A stretch of 6,359 nt of DNA from a virus (IMGVR_UViG_2619619134_000014), one strand, 5' to 3'. Numbered from the stretch's first letter, positions 1 through 6,359 are shown. Program-made: numbers and translations. The notes: generated by a model from the sequence alone, not told the origin.

Positions 1-276
1 TTACCGACTGCGGCCTGAGTTTTTTAAGTGACGTAAAATCGTGTTGAGGCCAACGCCCATAATGCGGGCTGTTGCCCGGCATCCAACGCCATTCATGGCC
101 ATATCAATGATTTTCTGGTGCGTACCGGGTTGAGAAGCGGTGTAAGTGAACTGCAGTTGCCATGTTTTACGGCAGTGAGAGCAGAGATAGCGCTGATGTC
201 CGGCGGTGCTTTTGCCGTTACGCACCACCCCGTCAGTAGCTGAACAGGAGGGACAGCTGATAGAAACAGAAGCCAC
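1..276 (-). CDS. insA: IS1 InsA protein (91 aa)
   Basis: Translation [91 protein letters not shown] matches IS1 InsA from memory, including the zinc-finger-like CxxC...CxxC N-terminus and the HTH region. Confidence 0.95.
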
Positions 277-308
277 TGGAGCACCTCAAAAACACCATCA
301 TACACTAA

Positions 309-331
309 ATCAGTAAGTTGGCAGCATCACC
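309..331 (-). repeat. IS1 terminal inverted repeat (about 23 bp)
   Basis: Reverse complement of 309..331 is GGTGATGCTGCCAACTTACTGAT, matching the IS1 terminal inverted repeat as recalled. The transition to non-IS sequence is at 331/332. Confidence 0.85.
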
Positions 332-498
332 CGATGAACCATGAGAACGTCGTTGACGATGGCGTGCATTTTCCCGTCTTTATCATCAACGTATTTTCTG
401 ACCGTACCGCGACTACATTTCAGTCTGCGTGCTACTTCTGTCTGGTTTCCGTATGCTTCAACGAGCATGTCTGGAATGGTTTTTACTGAGAACGTCAT
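332..498 (-). pseudogene. ninH: ninH homologue, 3'-truncated by the IS1 insertion (first 56 codons intact)
   Basis: ORF 310..498 begins [56 protein letters not shown], matching lambda NinH (68 aa, from memory) up to residue 56. It then continues as VMLPTY-stop, which is encoded by IS1 terminal sequence. The ATG at 498 overlaps the ninG stop (ATGA). Confidence 0.8.
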
Positions 499-1106
499 GC
501 GGCCTCACTTCTGCTATTTCGCAGGTCTTTGAGTTTCTGCTGATACTCCGCCTTGATGGCCCTGCACTCTTCGACAGTCCAACGATGGCGGCTATGGTTT
601 GATTCGATTTCGTCTACTGCTTCCTGCCCGATGCGGCTAATCAGTTCGACGCGATACGGAACGAGATTTCCGCTTTTGTGCTGGTTGCACACCACGCATT
701 GCTTGTGAATATTGCGTTCATCAAATCGGAGTTGAGGTGCCGCAGCAGTTGTCCGGTAATGTCCGGCATCCCACTGAGCAGACGTGAGCGTTCCGCACGA
801 GATACATGGTAAGTCGCGGTCTCTTTCTCTGATGAAGGCGTTTACGGCTTTTTGGGCTTGTTTAATCCAGTAACTGCGGGGCTTTAAGGCGAGTTTTCGA
901 ATCTTAAGTTTATCTTTCTGTTTCTGCTCCTCTCGTCGTCGTTTCTTCTCTGCTGCCTTTTCCGCTTTTTCGCGTTCTTTGCTTCGTCGTTCGAGTGCTA
1001 TCTTTGTTCCACACTCTGGAGAGCACCACCACTGATTAGCGAATGCAGGGTGAAACCATTCCCGACATTCATCGTTTTTACATCGTCTTCGCGCTGGTTT
1101 AGCCAT
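495..1106 (-). CDS. ninG: NinG/Rap recombination-promoting protein (203 aa)
   Basis: Translation [41 protein letters not shown]... with a cysteine-rich N-terminus and a central lysine/glutamate-rich segment matches lambda NinG (Rap) as recalled. The gene sits between ninF and ninH as in lambda. Confidence 0.88.
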
Positions 1107-1275
1107 CGTCTTCTTCCTCGTACATTGAGCTATTCGGATCGCTCATCAGTTCTGCGCAGCAGTGCTCACACACGTGAACTTCCAGCACATGCAGCTTCTG
1201 ACCGCAGTTAGCGCACGTTAATGCCCGCTCGACGCTTTCTTTCTGGTATTGAAGGGATTGGGATGGGCTAAGCAT
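1102..1275 (-). CDS. ninF: NinF (57 aa)
   Basis: Not in the ORF track because it is under 60 aa. Manual translation of the minus strand from ATG at 1275 gives [58 protein letters not shown]-stop, with two CxxC pairs, matching lambda NinF as recalled. Its 3' end overlaps the ninG start. Confidence 0.82.
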
Positions 1276-1636
1276 TATTGGCGTCCTGAATCATGAGAAA
1301 TACAATCATGGCTGCGCGGAGAGGCGATTCACCGCAGAAGCAGTAGTCAGGAACCCAACAACCTTCCTCTAAATCACCTCCTGACCATGCGCACCATTCT
1401 TTTTCCGCTGTCATCCACATGGTGCTAATTTTGTTTTCAGTGATGATCGGATATGCGTCAGCGGCCATATTACATGGGTCGAAATATCCGCAAGGCAAAA
1501 ACTCACCACCATCAATTCCAGCCAAGTAAACTTCTTTCTTTTCTGGATCCCAGTCGTAATTGTTTTTTCCTAGCACGATATGCGCGACTTTTAAGTTAAT
1601 TTCAAAATCACTTAACTGTGAATAATCCATGGTCAT
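1268..1636 (-). CDS. NinX-like phage protein (about 122 aa) inserted between ninE and ninF
   Basis: ORF 1268..1672 minus. The likely start is ATG at 1636 ([44 protein letters not shown]...), preceded by GAGGAA and overlapping the ninE stop (ATGA). P22-type nin regions carry a ninX gene at this position; the family assignment is from memory and is not verified by alignment. Confidence 0.55.
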
Positions 1637-1809
1637 TTCCTCGCACGTTCTCTTAGCCACCGGATATCCCACAGGTGAGCCGTGTAATTGAAGGTTTTTA
1701 CGTCAGATTCTTTTGGGATTGGCTTGCGTTTATTTCTGGAGTGTTTCGTTGGAAGGTATTTGCAGTTTTCACAGATTATGTCGGTGATACTTCGTCGCTG
1801 TCGTCTCAT
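1633..1809 (-). CDS. ninE: NinE (58 aa)
   Basis: Internal Met of ORF 1633..1854 gives [58 protein letters not shown], matching lambda NinE as recalled. The ATG at 1809 overlaps the stop of the upstream gene (ATGA). Confidence 0.8.
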
Positions 1810-2216
1810 TCGTACCTCCTGTCGGTAAATCTGACACCCTGACCAATAGCCCATGCTGTCGTGTACTCAATCAGACTTGCCATACGCTTCACACTCATCT
1901 GCGCGCTACTTTCGCGAATGTTGACGTATTCGCCTTCAAGGCCGGGCAAAACATCAGCTTCCTGCTTTGTTGCCACTGCATGACCGCTGATCAACAAAAC
2001 CTTCCATTGTTCCGGTTTTAACCATTTGCCGCACCATTGAACCTGACGTGCGATATCCGCCAGCATCGCGTGAAATTTTGCGTTCTGGTCAAGGTTGCGC
2101 TTGTAGTCAGTAATGCGGATGGTGACTGGCTTGTCTTTATCGAGTGGTGTTGCGAGGATGGCATTTATTGCAGCTTGCTGTTGTTGCTTAGTTCGGAGGA
2201 AGATTGTTTGCTTCAC
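1806..2216 (-). CDS. ninB: NinB-family (NinB/Orf-like) recombination mediator, GTG start (136 aa)
   Basis: Translation [79 protein letters not shown]... shares the conserved pattern of lambda NinB (..RSLDQNRKLWACLGDVSRQVEWHGRWL..ESWK..). AAGGAG lies 6 nt upstream of the GTG at 2216. Confidence 0.7.
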
Positions 2217-2227
2217 TGAATACTCCT

Positions 2228-2413
2228 TTATTTTTTATGCCTGTAACCCCATTCTTCCAGCAACCTTGCGGCGTACCACCCAAGAAACAAAGGAAAGAAC
2301 ATTACAATGAGATATTCCCCGCCACGGTCAATGTTCGAAATTGACCAGATTACGATGTAACCAGTGCAGGACAGGAATATTACAAACCCCAAAAAGCTAC
2401 TTCGTCGACTCAT
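2228..2413 (-). CDS. small predicted membrane protein with two hydrophobic segments (61 aa from ATG 2413; the ORF track starts 2 codons earlier at GTG 2419)
   Basis: Translation MSRRSSFLGFVIFLSCTGYIVIWSISNIDRGGEYLIVMFFPLFLGWYAARLLEEWGYRHKK has two hydrophobic stretches of about 19 residues and a basic C-terminus. AAGGAG lies 5 nt upstream of ATG 2413, and the stop of the upstream gene (TGA 2416-2418) sits between that SD and the ATG. No family recognised. Confidence 0.5.
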   Translation of the reverse strand: MSRRSSFLGFVIFLSCTGYIVIWSISNIDRGGEYLIVMFFPLFLGWYAARLLEEWGYRHKK

Positions 2414-2415
2414 GC

Positions 2416-2742
2416 TCACTCCTTCACTTTGATTCCAGCAGCGCGGATGTTTTCCTCATAAGCATCCATTGCATCACCGAAGCCATTGGAATAATCAACA
2501 GTAAACCCTTTGGCTAATGCTTCTCTGCTGTCGATAAACTTTGGCGCGGTTATTTCAATAGCTGCTCGCGATGCCTGCCACGTTTGCCAGTGGCCTTGAA
2601 CATCGTCCATCACGTATTGACCACCAATATTACCGCTGCCAATTTCATGGTGATTTTCAGGGTAACGGATAAGGTCTGAAGATTCGCCTCCACGTCGCAA
2701 CCAACTTTCTTCAAACTGGCATCTGCTTTCGTCATCTTTCAT
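2416..2742 (-). CDS. hypothetical phage protein, probably N-terminally truncated (108 aa from ATG 2742; the frame stays open upstream to 2820 with no start codon)
   Basis: ORF 2416..2742 minus (MKDDESRCQFEESWLRRGGESSDLIRYPENHHEIGSGNIGGQYVMDDVQGHW...). The same frame is open for a further 26 codons upstream (YAAFNSAVGGGSTPWGEPIFIECDCL) with no ATG, GTG or TTG, and there is no Shine-Dalgarno before ATG 2742. This suggests the true N-terminus was lost at the junction near 2820. Family not recognised. Confidence 0.45.
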   Translation of the reverse strand: MKDDESRCQFEESWLRRGGESSDLIRYPENHHEIGSGNIGGQYVMDDVQGHWQTWQASRAAIEITAPKFIDSREALAKGFTVDYSNGFGDAMDAYEENIRAAGIKVKE

Positions 2743-2820
2743 AAGGCAGTCACATTCAATAAAAATCGGCTCTCCCCAAGGAGTAGAACCTCCGCCAACG
2801 GCGGAGTTGAATGCGGCATA

Positions 2821-3309
2821 TCAATCAAGATTGATTCCGAATGGGTAACCAAATGGGATGCTGCTGAAAACACGCAGGTAGAAGCCGTCAAAGGTGGTCG
2901 TTCCGGTGCAATGAAGCGCGCTGCCGTTCAGTGGGGAATCGGTCGGTATCTGTATAACCTTGAGGAAGGTTTCGCACAAACATCTCTCGACAAAAAGCAG
3001 GGATGGCACAGGGCAAAACTCAAGGATGGAACAGGATTTTACTGGCTCCCTCCATCGCTGCCGGGCTGGGCAATCCCAGCATCAGATAACAAACCATCAC
3101 CAGAAAATACCAACCAGAAATCTCCATCGGTTGACTGCGAACAAATCCTGAAAGACTTCAGCGATTATGCAGCGACAGAAACTGACAAGAAAAAACTCAT
3201 CGAGCGTTATCAGCGTGACTGGCAATTAATGGCTGGCAATGAGGATGCGCAGGCTAAATGCGTTCAGGTAATGAACATCAGAGTTAACGAGCTAAAACAG
3301 GCGGCATAA
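2821..3309 (+). pseudogene. erf: C-terminal fragment of a Rad52/Erf-like single-strand annealing protein (ORF from Met 2911 is 132 aa; protein-like frame is open from about 2821)
   Basis: The frame reads ...AVKGGRSGAMKRAAVQWGIGRYLY..., resembling the conserved KRA..FG.G motif region of Rad52/Sak-type annealing proteins. The C-terminus (CEQILKDFSDYAATETDKKKLIERYQRDWQLMAGNEDAQAKCVQVMNIRVNELKQAA) closely resembles the P22 Erf C-terminus as I recall it. The 150 or so residues that should precede the motif are absent, and upstream in-frame sequence before about 2821 is not protein-like. Confidence 0.6.
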
Positions 3310-3825
3310 ATGGCAAGCAGAGGCGTAAATAAGGTGATCATTATTGGTCGCCTTGGGCATGATCCAGAAATCAGATATTCACCATCAGGAACGGCATTTG
3401 CAAACCTTACAGTTGCTACGTCAGAACAATGGCGTGATAAGCAAACTGGAGAGCAAAAGGAGCAGACGGAGTGGCACCGCGTGGTAATGAGCGGGAAACT
3501 GGCAGAAATTGCCAGCGAATATCTGCGAAAAGGCTCTGAGGTTTATCTTGAAGGAAAATTGCGGACAAGAAAATGGCAGGATCAAAGCGGACAGGATAGG
3601 TTCACTACCGAAGTCATCGTGGGCGTTGGTGGAACCATGCAAATGCTTGGTGGCAAGCAAGGAGGCAATGAACAGTCTTCACCTCAGCGAAATAACGGTC
3701 AGCAACAAAGACAGCAATCTCAGCAGCAGGGGAATCACAGCGAACCACCTATGGATTTTGACGACGATATACCCTTTGCACCAGTAACTCTCCCCTTCCC
3801 TCGTCACGCTATTCACGCAATTTAA
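3310..3825 (+). CDS. ssb: single-stranded DNA-binding protein, phage-type, with a 15-residue extension beyond the canonical DDDIPF C-terminus (171 aa)
   Basis: Translation [115 protein letters not shown]... is near-collinear with E. coli SSB (OB fold, Gly/Gln-rich linker, [10 protein letters not shown] tail). The ATG at 3310 directly follows the erf stop (TAAATG). Confidence 0.95.
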
Positions 3826-3838
3826 TCAGGAGAAAATC

Positions 3839-4132
3839 ATGCCAGCGCCTCTGTATGGTGCGGACGACGCGCGCCGCTGTTCCGGCAATTCCGTATCAGA
3901 GGTGCTGGATAAATTCAGAAAAAACTACGATCGGATAATGTCGCTACCGCAGGAAACGAAAGAGGAAAAGGAATTTCGCCATTGTATATGGCTTGCAGAG
4001 AAAGAAGAACGCGAGCGGATTTACCAGACATCAATCCGACCATTCCGCAAAGCCACATATACCCACTTCCCTGAAATTGACCCGCGCCTGCGTAATTATC
4101 GATCACGCTATGGCGCTATCAGTAATGACTGA
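3839..4132 (+). CDS. hypothetical small phage protein (97 aa); possibly Abc2-like anti-RecBCD, unverified
   Basis: ORF with AGGAG 6 nt upstream of ATG 3839. Translation [97 protein letters not shown]. Its size and position downstream of the recombination genes are reminiscent of P22 abc2, but I cannot confirm sequence identity from memory. Confidence 0.6.
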
Positions 4133-4142
4133 GGAATTTACC

Positions 4143-4310
4143 ATGAGAGGACTTGCATACAATCCCGGCATTCTTCCGGCAGAAATGATTATTCGCCAAC
4201 GCGTAAAGCCAATGCCATCGAGAGAGGAATTGCTTAAAAGGAAGAGTTTCGGTTCTGTTAATGACAACAAATATCTGAATGCGATGTGGCGTAAAGGAGG
4301 CAAGCAGTGA
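4143..4310 (+). CDS. hypothetical small basic protein (55 aa)
   Basis: Internal ATG 4143 of track ORF 3993..4310, chosen because GAGGA lies 7 nt upstream and it starts just after the stop of the preceding gene. Translation [55 protein letters not shown]. Its stop overlaps the next gene's GTG start. Confidence 0.5.
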
Positions 4311-4606
4311 GTGTATGTCTTATTGATAAACGTCGACGTGGGCAACAAATACCATCTGTTGGAATGCCGAATCACACATGGTTTTGCGTACTTGATATCG
4401 ATGGTATGGATGCGTTGGTTGACACTCGTCATTACTGCGATACCGCAACAGCTACTCCGGCGAAAGCAAAGAAAATGGCTGCTCTGATAGAAAACTGGAC
4501 TCCACCTGATGGTTGGTGCAATGGGAATGATCGAGATTGGCATGAAAAAATGAAGGGCTATATCTGCGATTTCTTACGTAAATGCAACGGCTTCAGGGTG
4601 ATGTGA
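4307..4606 (+). CDS. hypothetical phage protein (99 aa, GTG start)
   Basis: AAAGGAGG lies 6 nt upstream of GTG 4307, which overlaps the upstream stop (GTGA). Translation [99 protein letters not shown]. No family recognised. Confidence 0.5.
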
Positions 4607-4607
4607 T

Positions 4608-5216
4608 ATGACCAAAATTAACTATCAGGCGCTGCGTGAAAAGGCAGAGAAAGCAACGAGTGGTGTGTGGTCGCTCGAATATGGAGAGGAGAGATTTGAT
4701 GCTGGTGATGCGCTAATTCATCGTGAAGTTGTTGGATATCTTCCCATTTGCAGAATTGAAGGAGCGCATCCTGAAAGCGGTTTCGATGAAGATTTCCAAA
4801 TGGAACAGCAGGCCAATGCTGAATTCATCGCCGCAGCCAATCCGGCTACCGTCTTGGCGCTGCTTGGCGAGCTGGAAGCAGCAAAAAAGCGCATAGCAGA
4901 ACTGGAAGCCGAACCTGTAAGCCAAACTTGCAAGTTGAACGAGCCATCGGGCAACTCTCCGGTAACTCCGGATGGTTGGGTTATAGTGCCGAAGAAACTA
5001 ACCGCTGAGAACGGCGCTAAGGGTGTGCTATCCGGTGAATTTTCAGAAACTACGTTTATAAGCTGCCCGGAATGCTTTGGTGATGATGATTGCGAAACTT
5101 GTGACGGCAGCGGGAGAATCGAAATCAAGGTTCCAGTCAGTTGGACAACTATCAAAACTATTTGGGCTAAAGGGTGTGAGTACTTTTCAATAGTAGCACC
5201 GCAGCAAGATGGGTGA
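4608..5216 (+). CDS. ead/Ea22-like protein with a C-terminal double-CxxC (CxxCxGxG-like) zinc-ribbon motif (202 aa)
   Basis: The N-terminal region (MTKINYQALREKAEKATSGVWSLEY ... ANAEFIAAANPATVLALLGELEAAKKRIAELEAEP) resembles the conserved N-terminus and coiled coil of lambdoid ead/Ea22-like proteins as I recall them. The C-terminus has CPECFGDDDCETCDGSGRIE. The start at 4608 follows the upstream stop by 1 nt. Confidence 0.55.
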   Translation: MTKINYQALREKAEKATSGVWSLEYGEERFDAGDALIHREVVGYLPICRIEGAHPESGFDEDFQMEQQANAEFIAAANPATVLALLGELEAAKKRIAELEAEPVSQTCKLNEPSGNSPVTPDGWVIVPKKLTAENGAKGVLSGEFSETTFISCPECFGDDDCETCDGSGRIEIKVPVSWTTIKTIWAKGCEYFSIVAPQQDG

Positions 5217-5303
5217 TGAAAACAAGTATTTATAACTTAAAAGCATTAAAAAATCGCTTATAGATCAAAAGAAATCTACGTCAAATATTACTATATTTCA
5301 ATG

Positions 5304-5312
5304 TGTTATAAT
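5304..5312 (+). promoter_or_regulatory. putative sigma70 extended -10 promoter element (TGtTATAAT) in an AT-rich intergenic region
   Basis: TGTTATAAT at 5304..5312 is a perfect -10 hexamer with the TGn extension, about 30 nt upstream of ATG 5343. No convincing -35 is present, consistent with an extended -10 promoter. The surrounding 5217..5340 is visibly AT-rich. Confidence 0.4.
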
Positions 5313-5342
5313 TACCCCGTACATAAAATGGGGGGACACAAA

Positions 5343-5585
5343 ATGTTCAAACGCTGCATCACCAAGTGTGGAAGCACACCTGACATCCAAGCTTTTATTA
5401 ATGAAGATGGTAAGCTTGTTGTTGAGAGGAGTGGTCCTTTTATTAGCAAACAACTTATCATTACCTCTCCAGCGGAGATGGCCGGGGAATGGATAGTTTC
5501 TGAACCAGAGGAGTTGCACATCCCGCTTCCTTATGGCCCTCAGGGACTGATTTATAACCGTTATGTTCAGAAGGAGGCGGGTTGA
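5343..5585 (+). CDS. hypothetical small protein (80 aa), moron-like
   Basis: Internal ATG of track ORF 5301..5585, with a G-rich SD-like GGGGGG about 7 nt upstream. Translation MFKRCITKCGSTPDIQAFINEDGKLVVERSGPFISKQLIITSPAEMAGEWIVSEPEELHIPLPYGPQGLIYNRYVQKEAG. No family recognised. Confidence 0.5.
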   Translation: MFKRCITKCGSTPDIQAFINEDGKLVVERSGPFISKQLIITSPAEMAGEWIVSEPEELHIPLPYGPQGLIYNRYVQKEAG

Positions 5586-5661
5586 CAATGTCAGGCATAA
5601 CATCGCCGAGAAATCGAAAGAAAAACAGAACAAGGTAAACGTTGACCTTGCAGCATCAGGC

Positions 5662-5844
5662 ATGGAGTACAGAGAGCGCCTTAACATACCTGTTATCACT
5701 GAGCAGGTATCATGAGAGCAACCTGAGCACTCACGCGAGTATTTCATGGAGCGCATCAGATACTATCGCGAGCAGTCGTTAAACATGCCCAAGGGAAGCA
5801 ACCCATGGTATATCGATATGGATGAACAGAACGCCAAGAAGTAA
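5662..5844 (+). pseudogene. small ORF interrupted by an in-frame TGA at 5713..5715 (about 60 codons if read through); candidate decayed gene
   Basis: Manual translation of one frame gives MEYRERLNIPVITEQVS-stop-EQPEHSREYFMERIRYYREQSLNMPKGSNPWYIDMDEQNAKK-stop. The same frame is open back to 5551. A second frame carries AAGGAGG (5571-5577) followed by ATG 5588 encoding only 16 basic residues (MSGITSPRNRKKNRTR). An intrinsic terminator follows. Confidence 0.35.
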
Positions 5845-5864
5845 ACGCAATTTGAACGAATGCG

Positions 5865-5890
5865 AACCCGCCGAGTGCGGGTTTTCTTTT
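5865..5890 (+). terminator. putative Rho-independent terminator
   Basis: AACCCGC (5865-5871), loop CGAGT, GCGGGTT (5877-5883), followed by TTTCTTTT. This is a 7-bp GC-rich stem with a T-rich tail, 20 nt after the TAA at 5842-5844. Confidence 0.6.
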
Positions 5891-5933: not shown

Positions 5934-6101
5934 ATGCACTTCCGAGTCACAGGTGAATGGAATGGAGAACCATTCAACAGAGTTATCGAAGCGGAGAACA
6001 TCAACGACTGCTATGACCACTGGATGATATGGGCGCAGATAGCGCATGCAGACGTAACCAATATTCGAATTGAAGAACTGAAAGAACACCAAGCCGCCTG
6101 A
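5934..6101 (+). CDS. hypothetical small protein (55 aa)
   Basis: Below the ORF-track size cutoff; found manually. GGAG lies 7 nt upstream of ATG 5934. Translation MHFRVTGEWNGEPFNRVIEAENINDCYDHWMIWAQIAHADVTNIRIEELKEHQAA. It is flanked by intrinsic terminators on both sides. Confidence 0.55.
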   Translation: MHFRVTGEWNGEPFNRVIEAENINDCYDHWMIWAQIAHADVTNIRIEELKEHQAA

Positions 6102-6114
6102 TGGCGGTTTTTTA
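6093..6114 (+). terminator. putative Rho-independent terminator overlapping the stop codon of the 55-aa gene
   Basis: GCCGCC (6093-6098), loop TGAT, GGCGG (6103-6107), followed by TTTTTTATT. The TGA stop (6099-6101) lies in the loop. Confidence 0.6.
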
Positions 6115-6158: not shown

Positions 6159-6359
6159 ATGCAACACGAACTACAACCTGATTCACTGGTTGATTTGAAA
6201 TTCATCATGGCTGATACTGGCTTCGGTAAGACCTTCATCTATGACCGGATTAAGTCCGGCGACCTGCCAAAAGCCAAAGTTATCCACGGGCGAGCAAGAT
6301 GGTTATATCGTGACCATTGTGAATTCAAAAATAAGCTCTTAAGCCGCGCCAATGGGTAA
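6159..6359 (+). CDS. alpA: AlpA-family phage regulatory protein / excisionase-like DNA-binding protein (66 aa)
   Basis: Translation MQHELQPDSLVDLKFIMADTGFGKTFIYDRIKSGDLPKAKVIHGRARWLYRDHCEFKNKLLSRANG fits the AlpA/Vis-type helix-turn-helix pattern (..TG.S..TIY..I..G.FP.P.K.G.R...W.). GGAG lies 9 nt upstream of the ATG. Confidence 0.72.
   Translation: MQHELQPDSLVDLKFIMADTGFGKTFIYDRIKSGDLPKAKVIHGRARWLYRDHCEFKNKLLSRANG

Follow-up and report, generated by a model that had tools for sequence, protein, structure and literature searches.

Organization of the four-gene block

The window considered here, namely the whole stretch of DNA that was analyzed (6,359 nucleotides, from the virus IMGVR_UViG_2619619134_000014), contains four small ORFs that follow one another closely between positions 3839 and 5216. 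Their arrangement raises the question of whether they constitute a single counter-defense or host-takeover cluster, as had been proposed in a sequence-only reading of the locus, and, if not, which of them belong together. All four lie on the plus strand, and comprise abc2 (ORF1, 3839-4132; 97 aa, full length), a DUF2737 gene (ORF2, 4143-4310; 55 aa), a DUF7739 gene with a GTG start codon (ORF3, 4307-4606; 99 aa) and an Ead/Ea22-like gene (ORF4, 4608-5216; 202 aa). The start of ORF1 lies 13 nt after the stop codon of ssb, as read from the sequence, and a 10-nt spacer separates it from ORF2; ORF2 and ORF3 overlap by 4 nt (GTGA), and a single nucleotide separates ORF3 from ORF4. Each gene is preceded by its own ribosome-binding site, these being AGGAG (3828-3832), GAGGA (4131-4135, overlapping the stop codon of ORF1), AAGGAGG (4294-4300) and the weaker GGGTGA (4596-4601), respectively. 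The four packed ORFs with individual Shine-Dalgarno sequences described in the sequence-only reading are hence confirmed, down to the exact coordinates.

Each of the four proteins scores far above the cut-off with a curated Pfam family and is matched along its entire length by a PHROG family, and across related loci purifying selection was detected on abc2, DUF2737 and DUF7739 (dN/dS of 0.22, 0.34 and 0.25, respectively). Given these family matches and the purifying selection acting in the same frames, the four ORFs are real genes and chance ORFs are ruled out. A 105-aa ORF spanning 3993-4310 was rejected as a separate gene, since the family match starts at the ATG at 4143, indicating that it is merely ORF2 extended upstream. 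No convincing family support was seen for antisense ORFs or for ORFs in alternative frames of this region, the best match having an E-value of 0.0064.

The block shares 94–96% DNA identity with phage Sf6, and a wider comparison of window positions 3310-5300 with the same phage gave 94.9% identity over 84% of the length. It is also very common in E. coli prophages, where it is annotated as 'phage anti-RecBCD protein / DUF2737 / DUF7739 / ead-Ea22-like'; the gene block is thus already known and extremely common. The plus strand corresponds to the direction of the PL operon, and a TorI/Xis-like gene (6159-6359) occupies the end of the window. A 2025 survey (PMC12315714) defined an 'HK75 type' of Rec module, which combines an anti-RecBCD protein, an SSB and an annealing protein without a nuclease, and the module in the window, with an anti-RecBCD protein, an SSB, an annealing protein and no nuclease, is of this type. 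The best joint explanation for the four ORFs, which we consider highly probable, is that they represent the accessory genes at the distal end of the early-left (PL) operon in a lambdoid prophage of the HK75/Sf6 type.

The first gene encodes Abc2

ORF1 was recovered with PF11043 (Anti-RecBCD_p2) at an E-value of 5.6e-63 (209.6 bits against a curated cut-off of 25 bits), with the match spanning residues 1-97 of 97, and with phrog_656 at 7.7e-55. It also aligns without gaps over residues 1-97 to chain A of PDB entry 8b1t, which is the P22 Abc2 bound to RecBCD (2.8e-57). The identity is 92.8% with P22 Abc2 and 99% with the Abc2 proteins of HK75 and HK446, and the sequence collection has 12,368 blocks in which this exact protein is indexed. 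These observations turn what had been a tentative Abc2-like call into a certainty: ORF1 is a bona fide Abc2. Cryo-EM has placed Pro68 of Abc2 in the active site of the host protein PpiB (PMC9836394); this proline is retained in ORF1, and the motif IRPFRK is conserved in the alignment with 8b1t_A. The near-identity to the P22 protein suggests that ORF1 should bind to RecBCD through the RecC subunit and turn the enzyme from destruction of phage DNA towards recombination that depends on the phage recombinase. Through the conserved Pro68 it would also be expected to engage host PpiB.

A conserved pair of abc2 and DUF2737

ORF2 matches PF10930 (DUF2737) with an E-value of 1.7e-29 (101.9 bits; cut-off 25 bits) and phrog_1117 with 8.8e-38, and its homologs include P22 orf56, Sf6 gp23, HK75 gp29 and HK022 gp38. 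An alignment with P22 orf56 and gp24 of the Jerseyvirus SE2 revealed that the core of the family, P-x-P-[ST]-R-E-E-L-L-K-R-x-S-F...N-K-Y-L-N, is present in ORF2. The protein is strongly basic, with 12 K/R against 4 D/E over 55 residues. The DUF2737 profile retrieved no solved relative from the PDB sequences, and a search of the literature for DUF2737, PF10930, phrog_1117 and orf56 returned no functional data.

We examined the association of the two genes by using each in turn as the anchor in viral contigs and genomes. DUF2737 lies downstream in all 77 informative Abc2-anchored viral contigs, at a gap of 10 nt in 70 of them and of 297 nt in the other 7. The longer gap matches the size of the Sf6 gp24-like gene, which separates abc2 from DUF2737 in Sf6, in HK446 and in 9 DUF2737-anchored loci. 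Conversely, Abc2 is found upstream in 73 of 79 DUF2737-anchored loci. The pair is likewise present in all eight of the diverse genomic contexts in which the exact Abc2 protein was examined, where the upstream recombinase may be Rad52-like with SSB, ERF or of the Sak4 type, and it recurs in P22, HK022, HK75, HK446 and Stx phages. Among the phage records of GenBank, Abc2 occurs in 225 and full-length DUF2737 in 221. By contrast, the flanks are highly variable, with the gene preceding abc2 belonging to at least 10 unrelated families, and that following DUF2737 to at least 8, in the 204 loci that contain the pair. abc2 and DUF2737 therefore form a conserved two-gene unit, with neighbors that are swapped on either side. 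The new element reported here is the quantification of this near-obligate pairing, which we regard as a modest lead.

One reading of the pairing is that DUF2737 represents an overlooked third Abc component, which would either modulate the Abc2-RecBCD-PpiB complex or protect the phage against abortive-infection sensors triggered by tampering with RecBCD, such as guards of the retron Ec48/Se72 type or similar ones. This would account for the occurrence of DUF2737 after abc2 in essentially every phage with abc2, whatever recombinase lies upstream. The pairing makes it reasonable to regard P22 orf56 as a candidate missing player in the conflict between Abc2 and RecBCD, and DUF2737 may be a small basic adaptor acting in the same RecBCD/recombination conflict as Abc2.

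A serious rival to such a partnership is that the adjacency is functionally meaningless, with DUF2737 hitch-hiking at a conserved DNA joint that serves as a site of mosaic exchange. Synonymous divergence is lowest precisely across the joint, with pS values of 0.11 in abc2 codons 65-97 and 0.04 in DUF2737 codons 2-22, as against 0.23–0.24 elsewhere, so that the linkage could partly reflect conservation of the DNA joint rather than joint function. An explanation of the conserved joint as an RNA element was dropped, as the joint had 0 matches in Rfam and its folding was not unusual (z = -0.10). The allele types of the two genes, 5 for Abc2 and 3 for DUF2737, also reassort freely (r = 0.17 for the divergences of the two), and the intervening Sf6 gp24-like gene and the 297-nt gap described above speak for this rival as well. 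Further, the DUF2737 core is encountered in virulent Jerseyvirus and Kagunavirus phages without abc2, and Abc2 co-expressed alone with RecBCD binds and modifies it without DUF2737 (PMC9836394), which implies that DUF2737 is not an obligatory cofactor. However, equally tight junctions in these loci, for example the 4-nt overlap that follows DUF2737, are mosaic breakpoints with many alternative neighbors, suggesting that short distance alone is insufficient to hold genes together. The pairing moreover persists across Abc2 proteins that are only 61% identical to each other, including those of Stx phages, and abc2 is missing from only 6 of the 79 DUF2737 loci. On balance, we see mere hitch-hiking as a substantial possibility, though one that we lean against. 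Given the reassortment of alleles, the conserved DNA of the joint, the ability of Abc2 to work alone and the presence of the DUF2737 core elsewhere without abc2, we also judge it rather unlikely that DUF2737 is a functional partner of Abc2.

DUF7739 is an independently shuffled cassette

ORF3 was detected with PF24881 (DUF7739) at an E-value of 8e-21 (74.9 bits; cut-off 27 bits) and with phrog_1239 at 2.6e-55. Its homologs include Sf6 gp22 and HK75 gp27, the latter being 95% identical to it, and relatives with 35–43% identity are seen in P1-like and other phages. The family is small, with 72 representative clusters among 1.8 billion proteins. ORF3 has the C-terminal CNGFR of DUF7739, in which C93, N94, G95 and F96 are invariant in an alignment of 21 members. 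An AF2 model of the protein predicts an alpha/beta fold (pLDDT 82.8, pTM 0.74). In a Foldseek check this model had no match in the PDB at E <= 0.001 and recovered one unnamed protein from BFVD at that threshold; the DUF7739 profile likewise found nothing among the PDB sequences. A search of the literature for DUF7739, PF24881, phrog_1239 and hkaI returned no functional data. The two middle genes thus have no known function, as the sequence-only reading had surmised, but they are not orphans, belonging as they do to the families DUF2737 (PF10930) and DUF7739 (PF24881).

A role for DUF7739 as a DNA mimic was rejected because the protein is not acidic, having 12 D/E versus 14 K/R. The model provides a weak lead towards a small inhibitor- or immunity-like fold, and a function as a small protein-binding inhibitor would be plausible but weakly supported; we accordingly describe the protein as a putative small protein-binding modulator. 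In terms of its genomic distribution, 23 of 80 DUF7739 loci have neither abc2 nor DUF2737, and the gene is missing from 7 of the 8 contexts of the identical Abc2 protein. It is therefore an independently shuffled accessory cassette, which is found with or without the abc2-DUF2737 pair.

The Ead/Ea22-like gene

ORF4 matches PF13935 (Ead_Ea22) over residues 3-102 (1.8e-19, 71.1 bits; cut-off 27 bits), and the call of the last gene as ead/Ea22-like is thereby upheld for its N-terminal 102 residues. The protein is 100% identical to P0107, a common E. coli protein present on 83 contigs. A short coiled coil links its N-terminal Ead_Ea22 domain (1-102) to a C-terminal domain about 85 aa in size, which contains a zinc-ribbon-like motif, CPEC...CETCDGSG. 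An alignment of its relatives points to a modular organization, in which a conserved N-terminal domain and a C-terminal domain are joined by a coiled coil with variable inserts, and additional inserted domains are optional. The C-terminal domain gave only sub-threshold matches to zinc-finger families of the DnaJ type. A search of ORF4 against the PDB sequences at E <= 10 returned only chance matches, and the dimeric C-terminal domain of the lambda type, which has been solved by NMR, was not among them. An AF2 model built on a 20-sequence alignment had a pLDDT of 35.5, which is too poor for fold comparison.

The Ea22 proteins of lambda and Stx phages have a pro-lysogenic developmental role and a variable C-terminal domain. 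ORF4 may be a tetramerizing developmental factor of the Ea22 type, in which the variable C-terminal domain would pick the host target. The published pro-lysogenic role speaks against the host-takeover or counter-defense function that had been suggested for the cluster. Like DUF7739, the Ea22-like gene is an independent mosaic cassette that occurs with or without the abc2-DUF2737 pair.

A counter-defense hotspot rather than a single operon

The general idea that this region of lambdoid phages houses counter-defense genes, which had been raised in the sequence-only reading, is supported by published work. Silas et al. listed accessory regions termed 'EaaRecBCD' and used a homolog of Abc2, which is homologous to ORF1, as a control. 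A 2026 preprint reported that Oad2 (HK446 gp27, P22 EaE-like), encoded right after DUF2737, inhibits the OLD abortive-infection nuclease of P2, and proposed the post-DUF2737 locus of HK446 as a hotspot of anti-immunity genes. BLASTP comparisons with HK446 gp27 gave E-values of at least 1.1 for ORF4 and at least 3.5 for ORF3, both were rejected as Oad2 homologs, and the window is consequently devoid of an Oad2-type gene. The same preprint found HK75 to be sensitive to OLD, and since HK75 carries both DUF2737 (gp29) and DUF7739 (gp27), neither protein is likely to block OLD.

Other comparisons with defense-related sets were negative within their scope. Peptide motifs of ORF2-4 do not occur in any of the 200 accessory genes that Silas et al. 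tested, as given in the supplementary tables; the defense-system components of PADLOC had only chance-level matches to the four proteins (E >= 0.014); and a search of the four proteins against NCBIfam returned nothing.

These data bear on the proposal that the four genes form one co-functional anti-defense or host-takeover operon, with products acting jointly on RecBCD or on another defense. The tight packing and probable translational coupling of the genes, the recognized status of the region as an accessory and counter-defense hotspot, and the recurrence of the same four-gene order in many prophages speak for such an operon. However, the distribution of DUF7739 reported above, both in loci without the pair and in the contexts of the identical Abc2, argues against joint function. 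The slot after DUF2737 is occupied by an EaE/Oad2-like gene in 127 of 199 loci and by DUF7739 in only 35, and the documented role of Ea22 proteins, as noted, lies in lysogeny. We hence consider a single co-functional operon very improbable, and the coupled four-gene cluster of the sequence-only reading is not sustained.

Decay of the prophage

The statement that the four genes directly follow erf and ssb needs qualification. ssb (3310..3825, plus strand; 171 aa; Pfam SSB, 2.1e-38) does lie directly upstream, but erf is not intact. What remains of this gene for a single-strand annealing protein of the Rad52/Rad22 type is a C-terminal fragment (2797..3309, plus strand), with 98% identity to residues 66-235 of Sf6 gp28 by BLASTP; its 65 N-terminal codons are missing, and the first in-frame start codon is at 2911. 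The SSB has a tail of 14 residues beyond its DDDIPF tip, and the DNA encoding this tail equals the 3' end of Sf6 gene 26. Left of the deletion junction at 2796/2797, the minus strand carries a nin region, with a 108-aa phiTE_015-like ORF, NinB, NinX, NinF, NinG and NinH, followed by InsA of an IS1 that lies at the left end. Such a layout is expected if a deletion with one end within erf has removed kil, cIII, N, PL, the immunity region and the replication genes. The junction is absent from species-representative genomes and is spanned by no complete E. coli genome, in which the matches begin at 2796. A search with the exact truncated Erf protein located the identical remnant, beside dsdC, in 99 blocks of the sequence collection; assembly GCA_045749785.1 is one example of a strain with this remnant. 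The decay of the prophage and the deletion of the operon promoter had escaped the sequence-only reading.

With PL, N, the immunity region and the replication genes lost, the four genes are carried intact by a defective prophage as cargo that is probably poorly expressed, and their expression here is doubtful. It could be held that they are silent relics that at present serve neither host nor phage and are turning into pseudogenes. A prophage that lacks immunity and replication genes cannot be viable, the PL/N region is deleted and erf truncated, an IS1 has come to lie at the left end, and a consensus scan of the plus strand from 2200 to 3839 found no promoter of the sigma-70 type. On the other hand, none of the four ORFs is disrupted, two of them encode proteins with widespread counterparts that are 100% identical, the same remnant recurs in the 99 blocks mentioned above, and read-through or weak promoters could still drive expression. 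The intact ORFs and the widespread remnant agree with a deletion that arose recently in a successful clone, and loss of function is not thereby implied. We place the silent-relic interpretation slightly short of an even chance.

Significance of the conserved pair

The window itself matters little, as its genes are nearly identical to those of a prophage block that is very common. abc2 is the only gene of the four with a known role and is structurally well characterized. The stretch that follows abc2 in lambdoid phages is, through Oad2, an experimentally supported reservoir of counter-defense genes, and DUF2737 and DUF7739 are abundant families under purifying selection that are wholly uncharacterized. 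The near-obligate pairing of abc2 with DUF2737 provides a testable lead for work on the manipulation of RecBCD by phages and on their evasion of immune systems monitoring this enzyme.

Comparison with known systems

The lambda Ea22 and P22 Ead proteins (PF13935), which are encoded in the exo-xis region, share the N-terminal Ead_Ea22 domain with ORF4. They also resemble it in their three-part plan of N-terminal domain, coiled coil and variable C-terminal domain, and in the location of their genes between the recombination genes and xis. A difference is that the solved C-terminal domain of lambda Ea22 is unrelated in sequence to that of ORF4, as judged from the lack of a PDB match, the latter having instead the CxxC...CxxCxGxG zinc-ribbon-like motif. 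The pro-lysogenic role, moreover, is known for the lambda and Stx-phage proteins only.

Oad2 shares its locus with ORF3, immediately after DUF2737, and is the only experimentally proven counter-defense gene of this slot, but similarity to its sequence could not be detected in either ORF3 or ORF4. In coliphage HK75 (genes 32-27), SSB, Abc2 and DUF2737 are arranged as in the window and gp27 is the close relative of ORF3 noted above; the difference lies in an EaE/Oad2-like gene (gp28) that is inserted between DUF2737 and DUF7739.

Genes 28-21 of Shigella phage Sf6 comprise erf, ssb, 26, abc2, 24, 23, 22 and 21, and present abc2, DUF2737, DUF7739 and the ead/Ea22-like gene in the same order as here. 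Sf6 differs in having two extra cassettes, with the HNH gene 26 separating ssb from abc2, and gene 24 separating abc2 from DUF2737. The C-terminal part of the Ea22-like protein diverges from Sf6 gp21 past about position 4994 of the window.

In phage P22, Erf and Abc1 are encoded upstream of abc2, whereas the corresponding place in the window is taken by a Rad52-like annealing protein and SSB, as in the HK75 type; Abc1 and Arf genes are absent here, and the annealing-protein gene is truncated in the present copy. The two systems nevertheless agree in their central features. P22 Abc2 (PDB 8b1t/8b1u; PF11043) and ORF1 are both 97 aa long, are closely similar throughout and share Pro68. Furthermore, abc2 follows the recombinase and accessory genes of the PL operon in both, and is itself followed in both, at the same spacing of 10 nt, by the DUF2737 gene, which in P22 is orf56.

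A prophage remnant with an internal deletion

The prophage is a remnant, as positions 1-3309 of the window show. At the left end the insA gene of an IS1 element (1-276) adjoins ninH; on the minus strand, ninH is accompanied by ninG, ninF, ninX, ninB and an ORF coding for a 108-residue phiTE_015-like protein. We noted that these nin genes are joined directly to codon 66 of erf, with the junction at 2796/2797, and therefore the deletion took out everything from the 5' end of erf through the replication genes. Identical copies of this remnant, adjoining dsdC, were recovered from 99 public-collection blocks (GCA_045749785.1 is one), but it was absent from all the complete E. coli genomes searched.

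Sequence variation in the abc2-DUF2737-DUF7739 genes

Comparison of the abc2 product (3839-4132) with those of the loci L094-L173 revealed two clearly distinct versions of the central, RecC-binding helices, spanning residues ~23-64; the N-terminal 22 and C-terminal 30 residues are nearly invariant. The C-terminal 30 residues are disordered in the cryo-EM structure of P22 Abc2 on RecBCD (PDB 8b1t; PMC9836394).

The slot directly 3' of DUF2737 is occupied by the EaE/Oad2-like family, to which the anti-OLD protein of HK446 belongs, in 127 of 199 loci with the abc2-DUF2737 pair (for example, 3353-3880 in locus L259). The window belongs to the minority lacking this slot, with DUF7739 (4307-4606) placed immediately after DUF2737 (4143-4310). 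A few gene calls of 153-154 residues (proteins P0005, P0008 and P0009) join DUF2737 and DUF7739 in a single protein; a frameshift or misassembly at the GTGA overlap is the probable cause, but genuine fusions are possible.

Virulent siphoviruses without abc2, such as Salmonella phage SE2 (locus L004, 2441-2596) and many Jerseyvirus/Kagunavirus records, also conserve the C-terminal core of DUF2737 (PxPTREELLKRNSFP..NKYLN). In these phages its neighbours are tiny ORFs, in the interval separating the lysis genes from the terminase gene. Distant relatives of DUF7739, sharing 35-43% identity, were detected in phage genomes of ~95 kb, which are probably P1-like, and ~35 kb (for example, OL631484.1, OR620963.1 and PQ738613.1); the relative in Yersinia phage fHe-Yen8-01 is annotated as a 'particle associated protein'.

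Small genes downstream of the Ead/Ea22-like gene

The Ead/Ea22-like gene is followed by an AT-rich spacer (5217-5885; GC ~0.38), in which an extended -10 element, TGtTATAAT (5304-5312), precedes a gene for an 80-residue protein of phrog_9613 (5343-5585), with a terminator-like hairpin after it (5864-5884). A second small gene, of phrog_676 (5934-6101), ends at another such hairpin (6091-6110). This stretch is a moron-like unit, possibly expressed autonomously, within a remnant that may be silent.

The SSB tail and its Sf6 counterpart

The SSB encoded upstream of abc2 runs 14 residues past the canonical acidic tip DDDIPF (window 3760-3838). From the tail through the intergenic spacer before abc2, the DNA matches the 3' end of the HNH-endonuclease gene 26 of Sf6 and its spacer near base-for-base, the sole mismatch lying just inside abc2. 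Thus, in Sf6 an HNH cassette sits within the counterpart of the 3' end of the window's ssb.
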